From: Escherichia phage AV109
DNA: 64,000 bases
Sequence record: OR352939.1
Strand: one strand, 5' to 3'
Below the pieces are notes generated by a model that was given only the letters and a program-made list of their open reading frames with translations, had not been told where the DNA came from and did not search any database. Numbering within the stretch: position 1 is the first letter of the stretch; the number at the start of each line of letters is the position of its first letter. Made by a program: the position numbers and the translations under genes. This document shows, piece after piece, positions 27,617 to 42,814 of this stretch.

Positions 27617-28276
27617 TTAACCTCGATTCATAAATGCATTAAATATTTGGTCATCAACAGAAATTTCTAATTCGACTTCAATTGCTTCAGCCTTTTCTTC
27701 AGGTGGTAATTCGTATCCACACACTACAATTTTTTCATCGATATCAAAATATACAGAAGCAATACGATTAATGTTATTTTCAGTTAAGTCTAAATCAACA
27801 TCAACATCTTTTTGATCTACACTTAAAGGATAACTAATACGGGTTATTTTATTATCTTTAACAAAGAGTCCACCAACATACTCTGTACTACGTTTGAAGT
27901 TTACACGTTTCCGAATTGAAAGATATGATACATCTTTACCGTGAGCTCGGCTCATAGGACATAATGAATAGCTAGAATAAGAGATGTCAAATCCTACACC
28001 TTCAATATGAGCCAACGTGTCATGATTAAACCAATTATAATCATATGCCAAATCCATTATATTGTAATATGTGAAAGGCACTGGATTAACATCATATGTT
28101 GTACCTTTAAAATCTGCCCAGGCAACGATTTCGTTATCTTTAACAATTACAAAAATTACACCAATATGGTATCCGTTATTATTTTCATTCGGCGTTATAT
28201 TATAACATTGTGCATTAGGAAATTTACCATATTTAAATGGCGCATTTTTGTGCATATAATAAATCATATTATTCAC
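27617..28276 (-). CDS. Hypothetical protein
   Basis: 219-aa ORF. Confidence 0.45.
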   Translation of the reverse strand: MNNMIYYMHKNAPFKYGKFPNAQCYNITPNENNNGYHIGVIFVIVKDNEIVAWADFKGTTYDVNPVPFTYYNIMDLAYDYNWFNHDTLAHIEGVGFDISYSSYSLCPMSRAHGKDVSYLSIRKRVNFKRSTEYVGGLFVKDNKITRISYPLSVDQKDVDVDLDLTENNINRIASVYFDIDEKIVVCGYELPPEEKAEAIEVELEISVDDQIFNAFMNRG

Positions 28277-28562
28277 CTGTGATTTCGGTTACGATATCTT
28301 TGTTATCGAAATTAGGGTCACAATACAAAACATAGTTGTACTGCATGATACCGCCAGACTTAAGTTGTTCAACAACTTTATTAACCATATTAGGACGGTC
28401 TCGTTTAGTGATGTTCATGATATCAGAGAAGATTTGTTGTTCAACATCTTCTTGATTTGCAGTCATTGACCACTCACAGAGGTCTTTATCATAACCTGCC
28501 GTAACTGGAGCCGGTGCACATGATACTGCAAGTAAGATTGCTGCCAATGATAACTTTTTCAT
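28269..28562 (-). CDS. sp: Secreted periplasmic protein, Spackle-like
   Basis: 97 aa with N-terminal signal peptide (MKKLSLAAILLAVSCAPA); size and 61-to-41 region position as T4 sp. Confidence 0.45.
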   Translation of the reverse strand: MKKLSLAAILLAVSCAPAPVTAGYDKDLCEWSMTANQEDVEQQIFSDIMNITKRDRPNMVNKVVEQLKSGGIMQYNYVLYCDPNFDNKDIVTEITGE

Positions 28563-28625: not shown

Positions 28626-28874
28626 TTATTCTTTTTCGCGAATAATAATTACTTGTTGAGGCTGCTGAGCAGATTTCTTTTCGGCAACGATAGACCAAAT
28701 TAAAGTTCCAATCCAACCAATCATCGTCCAGTTAAAGAGTAAAGATACAAAGAAGATTGCTGTTGTGCTTTTTGTGCCACGAATAAGTGCGATTACCCAA
28801 GGCAACATGTAAATGATGATTGAACCAATACCTGCGATTAAAACTGCTACTGAACTAGCTACGAATAATTCCAT
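28626..28874 (-). CDS. Small membrane protein
   Basis: 82 aa with two hydrophobic helices (LIAGIGSIIIYMLPWVIALI, FVSLLFNWTMIGWIGTLIW). Confidence 0.45.
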   Translation of the reverse strand: MELFVASSVAVLIAGIGSIIIYMLPWVIALIRGTKSTTAIFFVSLLFNWTMIGWIGTLIWSIVAEKKSAQQPQQVIIIREKE

Positions 28875-28935
28875 GTTAATTTCCTCTTGATTTGTTATGT
28901 TTATAGTATCTTATTTTAACTTTGGCGTAAACCAA

Positions 28936-29304
28936 TTAATTAAATTTGTTTAAACGTTCAATACACTGGACGTAGTTATTCGCGATTTGTTTCTGGGTAG
29001 GCTCTTTACCAGTTGTTTCAACATAGCGAATGAATGCGATTTCAGTAGCCTGTAAGCAATGTTCTTTAACGCGCTGTTCTTTTGACATAGCTACAGTATC
29101 AGAATCACGATAACGTTGAGCATGGGCATCAGCTTGAATCATTCGATTACCTACAGTAACCGGGTCTTCCACTTCAACTTTAGGTTGGTCGTACTGTTTA
29201 ACATTCGGATTGTAAATCAATTGGCCGACGTTATTAGGGATAAAGCCATGGGCACCACATCCGGTTAATCCAAATACCATTGCTAAAGCGATTAATTTTT
29301 TCAT
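28936..29304 (-). CDS. Putative lipoprotein
   Basis: 122 aa; signal peptide with lipobox (MKKLIALAMVFGLTGC). Confidence 0.5.
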   Translation of the reverse strand: MKKLIALAMVFGLTGCGAHGFIPNNVGQLIYNPNVKQYDQPKVEVEDPVTVGNRMIQADAHAQRYRDSDTVAMSKEQRVKEHCLQATEIAFIRYVETTGKEPTQKQIANNYVQCIERLNKFN

Positions 29305-29332
29305 TTCAATTTCCTCTGTAGTTGATAGAAAG

Positions 29333-29362
29333 ATAGTAACACAGTATGTGGTGCTTGTAAAC
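29333..29362 (-). promoter_or_regulatory. Putative early promoter
   Basis: gtaaac 29357-29362; TACTAT -10 with 18-nt spacer. Confidence 0.4.
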
Positions 29363-29375
29363 AGTTATTTTAAAA

Positions 29376-29564
29376 TTATCGAAAATCTGCTTCGAAAACT
29401 TTCTCGTCATTAACAAATGCTTTAACTAATGCTTTGTTCACTTCAGCAAGTTGTACCGTAACCCACTCGATTTCTTCGCGATCACCTGATAACATGATAT
29501 CTTTAGTGAACATCTCACCGCTTTTAAACCAACCGATAAAAGTAACTTTAGTTAATTTGCTCAT
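29376..29564 (-). CDS. dmd: Dmd antitoxin (discriminator of mRNA degradation)
   Basis: Start at internal Met (MSKLTKVTFIGWFK); matches recalled T4 Dmd (V.F.GWFK...MFTK.I, AEVNKALVKAF); about 62 aa. Confidence 0.65.
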   Translation of the reverse strand: MSKLTKVTFIGWFKSGEMFTKDIMLSGDREEIEWVTVQLAEVNKALVKAFVNDEKVFEADFR

Positions 29565-29878
29565 ATTTCCTCGCAAAATGCCCATTCAGCGTGATAAACT
29601 GTAGCGCCTTTAGTATCATTCATTTGAACTACATCTACCGGAGAAATTACTCGATAGAGACGTGGTTCACCTCCATAAGAGCGTGCTGCTCGTCCTGCAT
29701 AAATCTTTGCTAAACCGATATCTTCAGTAAAGAATACACGATCCAAGTTTTTCTTACGTCCAGTTTCAGACAGAACTCCTGTTTCTTCAGGAGGACAAAG
29801 CATGTTTTCGATGTTAGCTGAACTACTTGAACCGTGATAAAAAATCTTAAATTCTGCTTTACAATCGATGGTTTTCAT
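29561..29878 (-). CDS. Hypothetical protein with YHGS motif (possible ADP-ribosyltransferase/Tpt1-like fold)
   Basis: 105 aa; KIFYHGSSS followed by RVFFTEDIGLAKIYAGR; start preceded by GGAG RBS and an early promoter. Confidence 0.3.
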   Translation of the reverse strand: MKTIDCKAEFKIFYHGSSSSANIENMLCPPEETGVLSETGRKKNLDRVFFTEDIGLAKIYAGRAARSYGGEPRLYRVISPVDVVQMNDTKGATVYHAEWAFCEEI

Positions 29879-29903
29879 TTTGTTCTCCAGTAGTTGATAG
29901 GTC

Positions 29904-29933
29904 TATAATAACACAACTACTGGAGAAGTAAAC
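29904..29933 (-). promoter_or_regulatory. T4 early-type promoter (GTTTAC-N17-TATTAT)
   Basis: tataat 29904-29909, gtaaac 29928-29933. Confidence 0.5.
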
Positions 29934-39240: not shown

Positions 39241-39370
39241 CATACTTTGCTTGTAGTCCAATCATAATCCATCCAATTACAAGTGTTGGAATCATTACCG
39301 GAGCCGTTAAGCTCCAGTAGATAGTCATGACAAGCATCAATAGTAAAAGTCCTATTGTTATTGCTTTCAT
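39227..39370 (-). CDS. Small membrane protein (about 47 aa)
   Basis: ATG 39370 overlapping stop of SIS gene (ATGA), GAGG RBS; translation MKAITIGLLLLMLVMTIYWSLTAPVMIPTLVIGWIMIGLQAKYECFN; T4 has membrane protein Imm in this interval. Confidence 0.3.
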   Translation of the reverse strand: MKAITIGLLLLMLVMTIYWSLTAPVMIPTLVIGWIMIGLQAKYECFN

Positions 39371-40002
39371 TGTTCGCCTCGTAACATGGCACCTAGTGCA
39401 CCGCCTGGATGGAACTTAAGGAAATCATTAGAGGTAAATCCACGTTCAGACGAAAGGTTGATAGCAAACGTATCGATAAGCGCTAACAACAATGTAGTGG
39501 ACATTGTCGGAGCTAAAGAGTTCTCGTCAACTTCTACCGCGATACCAGTACAGAACGTATAATCAAAAAGAGCTTCGTATTCTTGTGGAATGTCAGGGTT
39601 ACAATGTAACAGAATCTGTTTAACCTGAGGACGAATCATACGAAGATGTTTAGCAACACCTATCATTTCTTCAGTCTTACCAGAACGACTAATATGAATC
39701 AACACGTCATTAGGTGCAATAAATCCTGCGTCACCATGAGAATAATGCCCAGTGTTCAAATACATGCTAGGAATACCTAGTGAAGCAAATGTCTCGGAAG
39801 CTTTAGTTGCGATATTAGCATTCTTACCAACACCTGTAATAATTACCCGGCTTTCATAATTACTAAGTCCAGGGCGTCGAAGAGTTTCTAGAATAGCATT
39901 ATAACGAGCAGGGTTTTGACTAATTACTTTGGCCATAGCGGCCAAAGAAGAAGCTTGTTTTATGATTGCGTCAATAGCGATAGTAATAGGAGTAGTTTTC
40001 AT
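39367..40002 (-). CDS. SIS-domain sugar-phosphate isomerase, KpsF/GutQ-type (arabinose-5-phosphate isomerase-like), no CBS domains
   Basis: 211 aa; ITGVGKNANIATKASETFASLGIPSMYL, HGDAGFIAPNDVLIHISRSGKTEEM, LAPTMSTTLLLALID, FHPGGALG match the KpsF/GutQ SIS-domain pattern. Confidence 0.6.
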   Translation of the reverse strand: MKTTPITIAIDAIIKQASSLAAMAKVISQNPARYNAILETLRRPGLSNYESRVIITGVGKNANIATKASETFASLGIPSMYLNTGHYSHGDAGFIAPNDVLIHISRSGKTEEMIGVAKHLRMIRPQVKQILLHCNPDIPQEYEALFDYTFCTGIAVEVDENSLAPTMSTTLLLALIDTFAINLSSERGFTSNDFLKFHPGGALGAMLRGEQ

Positions 40003-40042
40003 ATTTCTCTCATTTAATTAGTTTACCGTCCATGGCATTATA

Positions 40043-42754
40043 TCAAAAATCGAACATATCGAACAGAGATGCTTTCTTCTCGTAATCGAGTTTCGCTGCT
40101 GATGTGAATCCTTCAAGTGGTTTAATAAATGTCTTCTCAAGGAGAACAGTGTAGTCCATCCAATGAAGTACGTCGTCTTTAATTAAATCTGTGATTTCAG
40201 TACCAGAAGGCCATGCGATACATTTATCACCGAATGGGTTTCCTTCACGTAAAGGCAGAACATATACTTTTTCACCTTCTACAACTTGTGGTGCATCAAT
40301 ATTACCTTTGATAGCTCGGTTATATGTCAGAATTCCACGAATATGAAACGGGCATTTAGGACCAGGGAATCCACCGACATCATATTTAGCAATGTTATTC
40401 GCAGAAGATACCGACGCGATGCTAATATAATTCAATTGACGGAATTCTTTTTCAAACTCTTTAAAATATTCTTGTAATGATTCTTCACCTTCTTGAAGCA
40501 TACGACGAATACATTCTTTAAGAGCTTTCTGTACTGCTTTAGGAGTCGAAGATTTCTGAGTCTCTAGACCCATGATTTTGAGTTTAGGCTCAGCATAACG
40601 AGTGCCTTCCATATCCCACACGTTTAATGCATAACGTTTCTTACCAGTCCAGAATCCACCAATACCTTTAGAACCGAGCGGAGGGCCAGCAATAGCTTCT
40701 CGGTCCATGAACATTAAGTGTTGTTTATTGTTCATGTATTCACACATTTCACGGAAACCTCTATCAATAGCTGGTTCCATACGTTCACGTGCAAACTTAT
40801 CTAAGAAGTCTACCCAATGGTTTGTATCACGGAATTTAGATTCACCAACCTTATCGATAATTTTATCAGCAGATACGTAAATAGAGTCTGTATCACCATA
40901 AAGAACGAAAGCTTCACCTTCTGTACCACAAACTTCATTCAGATATTCATTAACTTTACGTTCAATCCACTGTAAAGCCATTTGACCAAATGTTGTGATT
41001 GCAGTTGCATTACGCAAATCATAATAACGGAACCAAACGTTTCCAAGTGCACCATAAAGTGAGTTGATAAGCAATTTACGGTTAATTTGGGCAGTCATAC
41101 CCGCAACTTCAGTACGTTGAGCTCTAAACAACATTTCATTAAGAGATTTAGCAGACAACTTTTTAATCTTTTCTTTAATCTCATCGCTGAAGTCGAAACG
41201 ATAATCAACATCTAATGGTTCGTCAACAGAAAGATTAGGATTATGCAATGCCTCTTTAATTATTTCACCATTACGTTGAGCTGCAAGCATGTAACCTTTA
41301 TGTTCTTTACGTTGATTAAAGACCTTAGTGATTTCAGTTGGAACTACACCATCACGGTCTTTATAATACATCATGCCGTTAGGAGAACAACTGTACACAT
41401 CTGAAGGACGTTCAGCGATTGCGTTAATATAATCATGTAATGGAGCTACTTTAAACGTTCCTGCTATTGTTTCTGGGCTAATATTCACTTGGCGAATGAT
41501 GCTTGGATACAGAGATGTAAGGTCGAAACTCATTACATATTTGTATCGATTTGGAATAGGTTCCTTAACAAAAGCGCCAGGATAAGGTTGAACCGGGTGA
41601 GAACGACCTTGTGGAATCACCTTGTTCTGCTCTTTAAGGCTATTAAAAATAATAGCATCCCAAGTTTTAATTGGACTGAACACAGATTGAATCTGAATTT
41701 TAGCATAATAACCCATGTCCAAGCTCAAGTTGATGAACTGACGCTTAGAATCAATTTGCAATACACGATACACGTCGATAATGTTATAAGAAATATATCG
41801 TTGGTGATTGCTTTCACGAAGCTTAGAAATAGGGCCGTCATATTTCAGTTTACCAACGTTCAATTCAAATTCTGAAATGTAATCCAGAGAATACGACGGT
41901 TGATTGGTAAAAGAGAATTTTTTGTAAAGGTCAATGTAATCAAGAACAGAGATACCGAACAATGTAATGATTTCACGAGAACCATACATGTTTTCGATAA
42001 CTTTAACACGAGTTTTACGATGTGGCGATAAACGTTTCGCAGTAGATTCGCCAAAAATATTCTTGATTCGGTTATACACATATGGAATATCAAATGACTC
42101 AACGTTCCATCCAGTCAAAATGACAGGAGTTTTCTGTTGCCAGAAGTTGAGATATTCCATCAACAATTCTTTTTCGTTATCGAACGGCATATAAATGATT
42201 TTATCGATAATTTCAGATGGAACTTCATCACCGCCTTGTTCTTGAAGCTTAGCAGCGATTTCAATAGACCATTCTTCTACATTACCATACGGAGAATTCA
42301 ATAGATCAAATACGTAGAACCTGTCGTCAATTGAGTCATAATGGGTGATAGCATCAATAGGATGCTTTGCTTGTGCCGGCTCAGGGAACCCGTCCGGAGA
42401 TGTTACTTCGATGTCGAAGTTAGCCACACGAATTTTTGTATGGTCGTATTTGATTTCATAGTTATAAGTGTCAGACAAATACGCCAATTTGAAATCGTCC
42501 ATGCCAAGTGCTTCAAGTCCGATATCTTCCATGCGTTTAATCCATTGGGAGGCATCACGCATATTAGCGAACAACTTACGAGTACACGGCTTACCGTAGA
42601 TATCGAAATATTTCGTAGCCTGACTTTCCGGACAATGAGCAAACAGTGATGGTTTATATTCTACTTCACGAGTACGTTCACGGCCATTAGAATCGATGTA
42701 ACGTTCAAAAATTGAATCACCAATCTGTTCAACCGTTAAGTAAAATTCTTTCAT
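40043..42754 (-). CDS. 43: DNA polymerase gp43 (family B)
   Basis: 903 aa; exonuclease and polymerase motifs including YGDTDS; size as T4 gp43. Confidence 0.95.
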   Translation of the reverse strand: MKEFYLTVEQIGDSIFERYIDSNGRERTREVEYKPSLFAHCPESQATKYFDIYGKPCTRKLFANMRDASQWIKRMEDIGLEALGMDDFKLAYLSDTYNYEIKYDHTKIRVANFDIEVTSPDGFPEPAQAKHPIDAITHYDSIDDRFYVFDLLNSPYGNVEEWSIEIAAKLQEQGGDEVPSEIIDKIIYMPFDNEKELLMEYLNFWQQKTPVILTGWNVESFDIPYVYNRIKNIFGESTAKRLSPHRKTRVKVIENMYGSREIITLFGISVLDYIDLYKKFSFTNQPSYSLDYISEFELNVGKLKYDGPISKLRESNHQRYISYNIIDVYRVLQIDSKRQFINLSLDMGYYAKIQIQSVFSPIKTWDAIIFNSLKEQNKVIPQGRSHPVQPYPGAFVKEPIPNRYKYVMSFDLTSLYPSIIRQVNISPETIAGTFKVAPLHDYINAIAERPSDVYSCSPNGMMYYKDRDGVVPTEITKVFNQRKEHKGYMLAAQRNGEIIKEALHNPNLSVDEPLDVDYRFDFSDEIKEKIKKLSAKSLNEMLFRAQRTEVAGMTAQINRKLLINSLYGALGNVWFRYYDLRNATAITTFGQMALQWIERKVNEYLNEVCGTEGEAFVLYGDTDSIYVSADKIIDKVGESKFRDTNHWVDFLDKFARERMEPAIDRGFREMCEYMNNKQHLMFMDREAIAGPPLGSKGIGGFWTGKKRYALNVWDMEGTRYAEPKLKIMGLETQKSSTPKAVQKALKECIRRMLQEGEESLQEYFKEFEKEFRQLNYISIASVSSANNIAKYDVGGFPGPKCPFHIRGILTYNRAIKGNIDAPQVVEGEKVYVLPLREGNPFGDKCIAWPSGTEITDLIKDDVLHWMDYTVLLEKTFIKPLEGFTSAAKLDYEKKASLFDMFDF

Positions 42755-42814
42755 TTAATTTCCTTTAGACGAGTTATTGTCTTTTGTTTGTTGATGAACT
42801 TATTATACTCCAAA

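Follow-up and report, generated by a model that had tools for sequence, protein, structure and literature searches.

The gene under study lies on the minus strand of the window, by which we mean the whole 64,000-nucleotide stretch of Escherichia phage AV109 DNA that was analyzed. It is an ATG-initiated open reading frame at positions 28936..29304, encoding 122 amino acids plus a stop codon. Sequence comparisons identify it as the Mosigvirus (RB69-group) orthologue of T4 imm.1. The predicted protein matches the Pfam family DUF5481 (PF17578) over residues 25-117, with 37.4 bits against a gathering cut-off of 27, and the PHROG group phrog_1754, a group of unknown function (E = 8.8e-29). The RB69 genome names the same gene imm.1 (NP_861727, "conserved hypothetical predicted membrane protein"), and the nucleotide identity between the two is 97.6% (about 98%). 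The T4 gene is T4p046, UniProt P18057. The initial annotation did not recognize the open reading frame as this named gene (NP_861727; P18057; DUF5481). imm.1, or DUF5481, is already known as a named gene without a characterized function, and the open reading frame is not new. Over the surrounding 2.2 kb, the DNA matches that of Escherichia phage AV114, which is a Mosigvirus, at 100% identity. The 29 next-best of the phage records listed share at least 98.7% identity with it, and those of them checked for genus are all Mosigvirus.

Tblastn searches found the family in 656 phage records, 154 of them Mosigvirus and 502 Tequatrovirus. Window Imm.1 is 96.7-100% identical to the Mosigvirus records and 31-35% identical to the Tequatrovirus records, where the gene is annotated imm.1. 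Against imm.1 of RB14, RB32, and RB51, identity was 31-33% over 97% of the length (E ~1e-11). The window protein thus has ~98% identity with RB69 Imm.1 and, over 97% of its length, 33% with the T4 type. A reverse search with one of the family members (P0004) returned the same 656 records. Within each genus Imm.1 is at least 95% identical, and this holds over all 502 Tequatrovirus records, including T2 (96.8%) and T4 (97.6%). Between the genera, by comparison, Imm.1 is 33% identical versus 65-66% for Imm and Sp. The Tequatrovirus hosts in those 502 records are E. coli, Shigella, Yersinia, Salmonella, and Citrobacter.

A scan for the family in 1.84 billion representative proteins gave 7 matches at E <= 0.001. 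One of the seven (P0003) is a chimeric assembly, and another (P0010) is a weak match to a 2133-aa protein. Word-indexed searches recovered 6 clusters of the Imm.1 family, and IMG/VR contributed 7 loci. Across the sequences searched, the Imm.1 family has very few members and is confined to phages of the T-even type. NCBIfam and PADLOC returned nothing meaningful; a sub-threshold similarity to YgdI/YgdR (13.6 bits) covered the signal-peptide region only. Our literature search on imm.1 and DUF5481 found no functional study and no experiment on Imm.1.

We compared the window gene with seven other Mosigvirus alleles. The differences comprise 2-11 synonymous and 1-4 non-synonymous changes, and pN/pS values of 0.04-0.26 indicate that imm.1 is under purifying selection. 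A 50-aa open reading frame on the plus strand at 29116-29268 was also considered and is regarded as a shadow of the imm.1 coding frame.

Read along the minus strand, gene 41 comes first, followed by two small open reading frames, dmd, imm.1, imm, sp, and adfA; beyond adfA, also on the minus strand, lie a 65-aa open reading frame, a 164-aa open reading frame at the 61.1 position, and the primase gene 61. On the upstream side, dmd (29376..29564, minus strand; 62 aa from MSKL) was identified by matches to PF17587 (74.7 bits) and phrog_2102, and it is annotated in AV114. This gene is outside the envelope cluster and marks its boundary only. The gene immediately downstream, imm (28626..28874, minus strand; 82 aa), matches PF14373 with 57 bits and phrog_1039 with E = 1e-30. 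Its product is the superinfection-immunity inner-membrane protein, and the window Imm is 66% identical to RB14 Imm. It is followed by sp (Spackle; 28269..28562, minus strand; 97 aa), which matches PF25676 (145 bits) and phrog_1586, encodes a protein 65-66% identical to T4 Sp, and completes the envelope-acting run imm.1 > imm > sp. AdfA (gp61.2) matches PF23813 at 396 bits. In RB69, imm.1 sits between 61.4 and imm; 61.4 is absent from the window phage. The initial annotation had placed the open reading frame between a Spackle-like gene and dmd. Indeed dmd adjoins it, but the downstream neighbor is the Imm homologue and sp lies one gene further. The small envelope-acting cluster that it described is stronger than was claimed, as the membrane open reading frame is imm itself (PF14373, phrog_1039), with sp next.

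A consensus scan upstream of imm.1 detected a promoter-like sequence, TTTACA-17 nt-TACTAT with an extended -10 TG, at 29333..29361 on the minus strand. A Shine-Dalgarno sequence, GAGGAA (29311-29316, minus strand), lies 7 nt before the ATG. GTTTAC-type sites occur in T4 early promoters, and the site upstream of imm.1 is of the same type. The sequence upstream of imm contains a weaker promoter-like site (GTTTAC at 28927-28932 and TACTAT at 28903-28908, minus strand) and a GAGGAA sequence (28881-28886, minus strand). A 33-nt leader/-10 cassette is repeated upstream of imm, imm.1, and a 105-aa open reading frame. Time-resolved omics places T4 imm.1 in the early class for both RNA and protein (PMC9697503, supplementary files 4 and 6). 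The earlier proposal that the gene has its own early promoter agrees with the promoter-like site at 29361-29333 and with the early class of the T4 orthologue. Knock-down of T4 imm.1 by CRISPRi-ART had no fitness effect ("Not Fit" at -0.77; PMC11879866, supplementary file 15), and that genome-wide study gives the function of the gene as unknown (PMC11879866). T4 imm.1 is dispensable in laboratory growth.

The N-terminus of Imm.1 reads MKKLIALAMVFGLTGC|GAHGFIPNN, where the bar follows Cys16. A positively charged n-region (M-K-K; K2 and K3) precedes a 10-residue hydrophobic core, LIALAMVFGL. The signal peptide (residues 1-15) and the lipobox together occupy 29257..29304 on the minus strand, with the lipobox L13-T14-G15-C16 itself at 29257-29268 (minus strand), as judged from the translation and the lipobox rule. 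This rule is of the PROSITE PS51257 style and requires [LVI][ASTVI][GAS]-C, its Cys falling between positions 15 and 35. We ran it over all 1106 start candidates that the two strands of the 64-kb window offer at a length of 50 aa or more. Because only two of the 1106 candidates pass, the imm.1 open reading frame and Sp, the LTGC motif is not background of an AT-rich genome. A lipobox with the sequence LTGC after a signal peptide had been noted before, and it stands, with the Cys at position 16, the PROSITE-style rule satisfied, and the motif among the 2/1106 that pass.

The lipobox is present in four DUF5481 lineages, as LTGC in the window, LTGC in T4-type Imm.1, TTGC in P0008, and LVGC in P0009. 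Its Cys is kept although identity between these lineages is no more than 31-48%, and it is also present in longer imm-adjacent lipoproteins of other genera. One lineage, P0002/P0005, is without the lipobox Cys and has an SPase-I-type signal with an AHA| site instead. The lipid anchor is thus usual but not obligatory, and this points to a periplasmic site of action. Window Imm.1 is most probably lipidated at Cys16. In E. coli, the Lol rule sends lipoproteins with a +2 residue other than Asp to the outer membrane. The +2 residue is Gly in window Imm.1, Val in T4-type Imm.1 and P0008, and Ala in P0009 and SP18_gp045. Since the +2 residue of window Imm.1 is Gly rather than Asp, sorting to the outer membrane (inner leaflet) is predicted.

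Another reading, which concerns localization only, is that Imm.1 is unlipidated and that SPase I cuts after A18-H19-G20 to leave a soluble periplasmic protein. The SPase-I-like site A18-H19-G20|F lies 4 residues past Cys16, and in the alignment this A-x-G site falls opposite AHA| of the P0002/P0005 lineage, which has no lipobox Cys. Moreover, Sp carries a lipobox-like ...SC motif within its signal peptide, yet it is treated as soluble periplasmic in the literature. Against such processing, most lineages retain the Cys; among them are P0008, P0009, and the longer lipoproteins that lack any A-x-G/A site behind it. We regard the soluble form as unlikely.

We aligned seven family sequences (alignment A3), in which the other members are 31-48% identical to the window protein. 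Invariant positions are Y31, N32, P33, K36, and Y38, forming the motif YNPNVK-x-Y, together with Y65, R66, S68, E76, C83, and C114. The motif Y31-N-P-N-V-K36 (then x-Y38) is encoded at 29197..29214, and the invariant Cys pair at 29056-29058 (C83) and 28963-28965 (C114), all on the minus strand. We infer a periplasmic disulfide between C83 and C114. T4 Imm.1 and window Imm.1 have in common the lipobox LTGC, the motif YNPNVK-x-Y, and the Cys pair near the C-terminus. T4-type proteins differ in having a second Cys pair, on either side of the YNPNVK loop.

Two AlphaFold2 models, built from alignments of 5 and of 7 sequences, agree with each other and have mean pLDDT values of 61 and 63. Both parts of the expected N-terminal region, signal peptide and tether, were modeled with pLDDT below 50 (residues 1 to about 45), and residues 17 to ~47, a region of low model confidence, probably form an extended tether. 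Confidence is limited to residues ~70-120, where helices 75-98 and 104-120 were predicted at pLDDT ~90. These helices make up the modeled C-terminal helical hairpin (residues 75-120; 28945..29082, minus strand). Foldseek searches with the Imm.1 models found nothing below E = 1 in the PDB and, in BFVD, the protein's own family only. A sequence-profile search of the PDB with the Imm.1 family gave no match at E <= 1.

We then profiled the context of imm.1 across phage lineages. In six sequence-divergent DUF5481 lineages imm.1 lies 7-61 nt upstream of imm, and in every lineage with readable context imm is the next gene after imm.1, in the same orientation. Four of the arrangements place the pair after gene 43. 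The gap in Tequatrovirus is 7 nt in RB14, 8 in IMG/VR loci, and 11 in T4 (43 > imm.1 > imm > 42.1 > 42), and it is 7 nt in the P0005 lineage, 10 nt in the P0008 lineage, and 14 nt in the P0009 lineage (43 > imm.1 > imm > 42 in each). In T4, the pair lies between 43 and 42 with its genes 7-11 nt apart. In the window, by contrast, it lies between dmd and sp (Mosigvirus; dmd > imm.1 > imm > sp), and the spacer of 61 nt contains the second promoter-like site. The Mosigvirus site downstream of gene 43 holds an arabinose-5-phosphate isomerase gene and other genes. Because imm.1-imm adjoins sp in Mosigvirus and the gene-43 site is otherwise occupied, the two genes moved together. As a counterpoint, this relocation of the pair in Mosigvirus is a single event.

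We also scanned 80 Imm loci from IMG/VR, 18 T4-like and 62 non-T4-like, for open reading frames with a lipobox. A same-strand lipobox open reading frame was found within 151 bp of imm in all T4-like loci (18/18), among which are Gaprivervirus, Dhakavirus, and Gelderlandvirus-type contigs. Among the non-T4-like loci, 10 of the 62 have one on the same strand within 700 bp of imm, and 5 have one further out in the flanks. This clustering near imm has a binomial p of 0.002, or 0.01 when duplicate loci are removed. The useful addition here is systematic evidence that imm.1 travels with imm.

Other Tevenvirinae carry longer imm-adjacent lipoproteins, namely SP18_gp045, JS98 orf43, and a 148-aa open reading frame of putative Gelderlandvirus contigs, all with a lipobox. 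These adjoin imm or directly follow gene 43. On Gelderlandvirus-type contigs, the 148-aa lipoprotein is encoded 29 nt upstream of imm. The order in Gaprivervirus and Dhakavirus is 43 > imm > small TM open reading frame > 166-167-aa lipoprotein, which differs from the imm.1 > imm order. Kanagawavirus and Winklervirus encode a related lipoprotein after gene 43 but have no imm beside it, so part of the linkage to imm may reflect an ancestral position after gene 43. The T4/RB69-type linkage could likewise partly reflect a shared ancestral site downstream of that gene.

Several features connect the longer lipoproteins to the Imm.1 family. Together with P0008, P0009, and T4 Imm.1, they have a common tether motif after the lipobox Cys (Q-G-x-V-V-x-A-x-E-V-G-K), a common G-x-L-I/V-Y motif, and a C-terminal C...[NQ]-x-C pair, and their C-terminus is helical, as in Imm.1. 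They differ in having 25-45 additional residues and a C-G-N-N-C loop, and they fall below the DUF5481 threshold. We removed signal peptides, scored family members with an HMM of the longer lipoprotein family, and compared each score with 500 shuffles. None of the shuffles (0/500) reached the scores of P0008 (23 bits), P0009 (16 bits), or T4 Imm.1 (12.5 bits), and 11/500 reached that of window Imm.1 (5.5 bits). An hhalign comparison of the mature domains of Imm.1 and the longer lipoproteins was not significant (E = 0.012, probability 3.5%), and full-length profiles of the two aligned over the first 30 residues only. Distant homology between Imm.1 and the longer lipoproteins is therefore probable rather than proven: the shuffle comparison supports the link for the bridging members P0008 and P0009 and for T4 Imm.1, but not clearly for window Imm.1.

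Two players in superinfection exclusion by T4 have been characterized, Sp and, more recently, Imm. Sp, which the gene run containing imm.1 also encodes, acts on superinfecting phage as a periplasmic inhibitor of the gp5 lysozyme. T4 Sp (gp61.3; PF25676) resembles Imm.1 in being early, Sec-exported, small, helical, periplasmic, and Cys-containing and in belonging to the same gene run, and its signal peptide contains a lipobox-like motif. However, the two have no sequence or fold similarity, the target of Sp is known (the gp5 lysozyme domain), and Sp is better conserved between genera than Imm.1 (65-66% versus 33%). Imm, an inner-membrane protein, has the tape-measure protein gp29 as its binding partner and prevents translocation of the genome (bioRxiv 10.64898/2026.03.06.709160). 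Plasmid-borne Imm alone excludes T4 (bioRxiv 10.64898/2026.03.06.709160), so Imm.1 is not required for the known activity of Imm.

Gene linkage makes a role for Imm.1 in superinfection exclusion plausible. We tentatively interpret Imm.1 as an outer-membrane-tethered periplasmic accessory of Imm/Sp exclusion, part of an envelope-protection apparatus, and give this reading somewhat less than an even chance. It starts from what is observed: the identity, motifs, and synteny of imm.1, its purifying selection, and a T4 orthologue that is early and dispensable. An accessory role in the periplasm is suggested by the conserved position upstream of imm, by the contiguity with sp, and by the lineage with a plain secretory signal. 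In this scheme, imm.1 would be expressed early from a sigma-70-type early promoter of its own, and Sec would export the product. The protein would then be lipidated at Cys16 and Lol-sorted to the inner leaflet of the outer membrane. Mature Imm.1 (106 aa) would hang into the periplasm on a flexible tether of ~30 residues bearing YNPNVK-x-Y and would end in a helical hairpin of ~50 residues, presumably stapled by the conserved Cys pair. Most likely it would bind either a component of the tail tip or DNA conduit of an incoming phage that is exposed to the periplasm, or a partner that supports Imm and Sp. The fast divergence between genera, combined with invariance within each genus, fits a genus-specific partner such as the tail tip, the conduit, or Imm, and fits it better than a conserved host target.

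Two alternative functions have lower probabilities. Imm.1 may be a periplasmic lysis-control or envelope-integrity factor instead of an exclusion factor, acting, for example, on lysis inhibition (the RI/T pathway), as a murein hydrolase inhibitor, or in protection against lysis from without parallel to Sp. In favor of this, Imm.1 is small, helical, and exported, it has a Cys pair, and its gene lies two genes from sp; dispensability in standard growth, as is typical of such modulators, also fits. The protein, however, resembles none of RI, RIII, Sp, and the known lysozyme inhibitors, and its conserved neighbor is imm, not sp or lysis genes, which leaves such a function improbable.

Alternatively, Imm.1 may be a host-directed takeover or counter-defense factor that binds a periplasmic or outer-membrane protein of the host, such as a nuclease, a protease, or an envelope-stress sensor, with the link to imm being positional only. 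The region is rich in counter-defense genes (dmd, AdfA), and Kanagawavirus and Winklervirus have the related lipoprotein without an adjacent imm. The divergence between genera (33%) can be read in favor of this possibility because it is fast, but a conserved host target would predict slower divergence. In addition, PADLOC and NCBIfam gave no match, and the main text of the T4 transposon screen mentions no host-specific conditional phenotype for imm.1. We consider a host-directed function to have a small chance of being correct.

The initial annotation raised the possibility of a receptor-masking factor. Its other elements (a predicted lipoprotein, an early-type promoter, and an envelope cluster) are retained in our interpretation, but receptor masking is disfavored. 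Under that proposal, Imm.1 would bind the phage's outer-membrane receptor at its periplasmic or barrel face and so block the adsorption of later phages in the manner of T5 Llp or phi80 Cor. T5 Llp is a precedent, and both it and the Cor protein of phi80/N15 are, like Imm.1, small early phage lipoproteins with predicted outer-membrane sorting. They differ from the T-even systems in that they block receptors, whereas T-even exclusion takes effect once the phage has adsorbed. Cells infected by T4 continue to adsorb superinfecting phage, which is a requirement for lysis inhibition. T2 and T4 use different receptors, yet their Imm.1 proteins are nearly identical; the sequence does not track receptor specificity, either over the 502 Tequatrovirus records (at least 95% identity) or over the 154 Mosigvirus records (96.7-100%). 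Searches of Pfam, PHROGs, PDB sequences, and, by Foldseek, the PDB and BFVD gave no Llp or Cor match, and the P0002/P0005 lineage has lost the lipid anchor. Receptor masking is therefore very unlikely. An o-spanin of the Rz1 type was rejected, as the gene lies between dmd and imm with an early-type promoter and an early T4 orthologue, and not with or inside an i-spanin gene of a late lysis cassette, as no fold or sequence link to spanins was found, and as mature Imm.1 is not proline-rich (5 Pro in 106 residues) and has a C-terminal half predicted to be helical.

The accessory reading can be extended to a more specific proposal, which we regard as doubtful. Imm.1 may be an unrecognized third component of T-even exclusion that intercepts the tail tip or the tape-measure conduit before this arrives at Imm in the inner membrane, and Imm-family proteins and a lipoprotein may generally form two-gene modules. 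If so, the module would explain why the pair is kept in six or more T-even lineages, even after relocation, and also why lipoprotein genes occur beside imm on unrelated viral contigs. Imm.1 as the outer-membrane-side partner of Imm would fill in an envelope-level exclusion pathway of a model phage. For decades the protein has carried the annotation "hypothetical predicted membrane protein", and finding it here is a re-discovery of a known uncharacterized gene. Should the proposal hold, Imm.1 could help explain the genetic isolation between T4 and RB69. Imm.1 is among the most divergent genes common to the T4 and RB69 groups.

Directly 3' of sp in the window, gp61.2 (27617-28276, minus strand) matched AdfA, anti-DarT factor A (Pfam PF23813, 396 bits). 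The genes dmd, imm.1, imm, sp and adfA therefore form a dense run of counter-defence and exclusion genes. At its dmd end, RB69 carries gene 61.4 between dmd and imm.1, whereas the window phage has only 71 nt there (29305-29375). The spacer is also only 71 nt long, without 61.4, in phages AV114 and ATK47. The promoter-like site of imm.1 is located inside this spacer. A 105-aa ORF of no assigned function (29561-29878, minus strand; phrog_2110, equivalent to RB69ORF040c) overlaps the dmd start codon at its 3' end as ATGA, suggesting that it is translationally coupled with the antitoxin-like Dmd.

A 33-nt cassette spanning the Shine-Dalgarno to the -10 region occurs upstream of imm (28881-28913), imm.1 (29311-29343) and the 105-aa ORF (29883-29915), and the three copies share 64-76% identity. 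Reused early promoter/leader modules have been described in T4-type phages, and the cassette looks like one of these.

We identified a candidate SPase I site in Imm.1 (A-H-G/F, residues 17-20, 29245-29256; slash, cleavage), four residues past the lipobox Cys. It lines up with the AHA/ cleavage site of two Imm.1 homologues that lack the Cys (P0002 and P0005), and Imm.1 may be open to both the lipobox and the SPase I processing routes. The lipobox rule, a PROSITE PS51257-style scan of ORF starts, was also passed by Sp (28269-28562, minus strand), whose lipobox-like N-terminus is encoded at the 5' end of the gene (28518-28562). The Sp signal peptide is treated as 22 residues of the SPase I type. 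The N-termini are MKKLSLAAILLAVSC(15)APAPVTA/GYD in the window and MKKFIFATIFALASC(15)AAQPAMA/GYD in T4. Conservation of an ...SC motif inside both of these supposed SPase I signal peptides raises the possibility of partial or transient lipidation of Sp.

T4-type phages carry imm.1-imm downstream of the DNA polymerase gene 43. In the window phage, this position instead holds a gene for D-arabinose-5-phosphate isomerase along with two ORFs, of 47 aa and 561 aa (about 39368-42755, minus strand; 103341-106728 in the AV114 record), an arrangement shared with Winklervirus and Kanagawavirus.

In public records, imm.1 is labelled 'iduronate sulfatase' (NC_054931.1, T2; OL964735.1, T4; NC_025449.1; NC_054943.1; NC_054904.1) or, in many others, 'immunity protein'. 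The two labels seem to have spread by annotation transfer, without supporting evidence. T4 imm is known to be non-essential, yet a CRISPRi-ART screen rated it 'Fit' (1.40, p = 0.02; PMC11879866 supplementary file 15). This score may reflect a polar effect on downstream gene 42.

Among non-T4-like IMG/VR viral contigs, a distant Imm-family gene is frequently associated with an adjoining same-strand lipoprotein ORF (loci L045, L058, L067, L076, L090 and L101), and these lipoproteins are unrelated. At two further loci (L051 and L053), the ORF beside the Imm-family gene is rich in proline and resembles an o-spanin.
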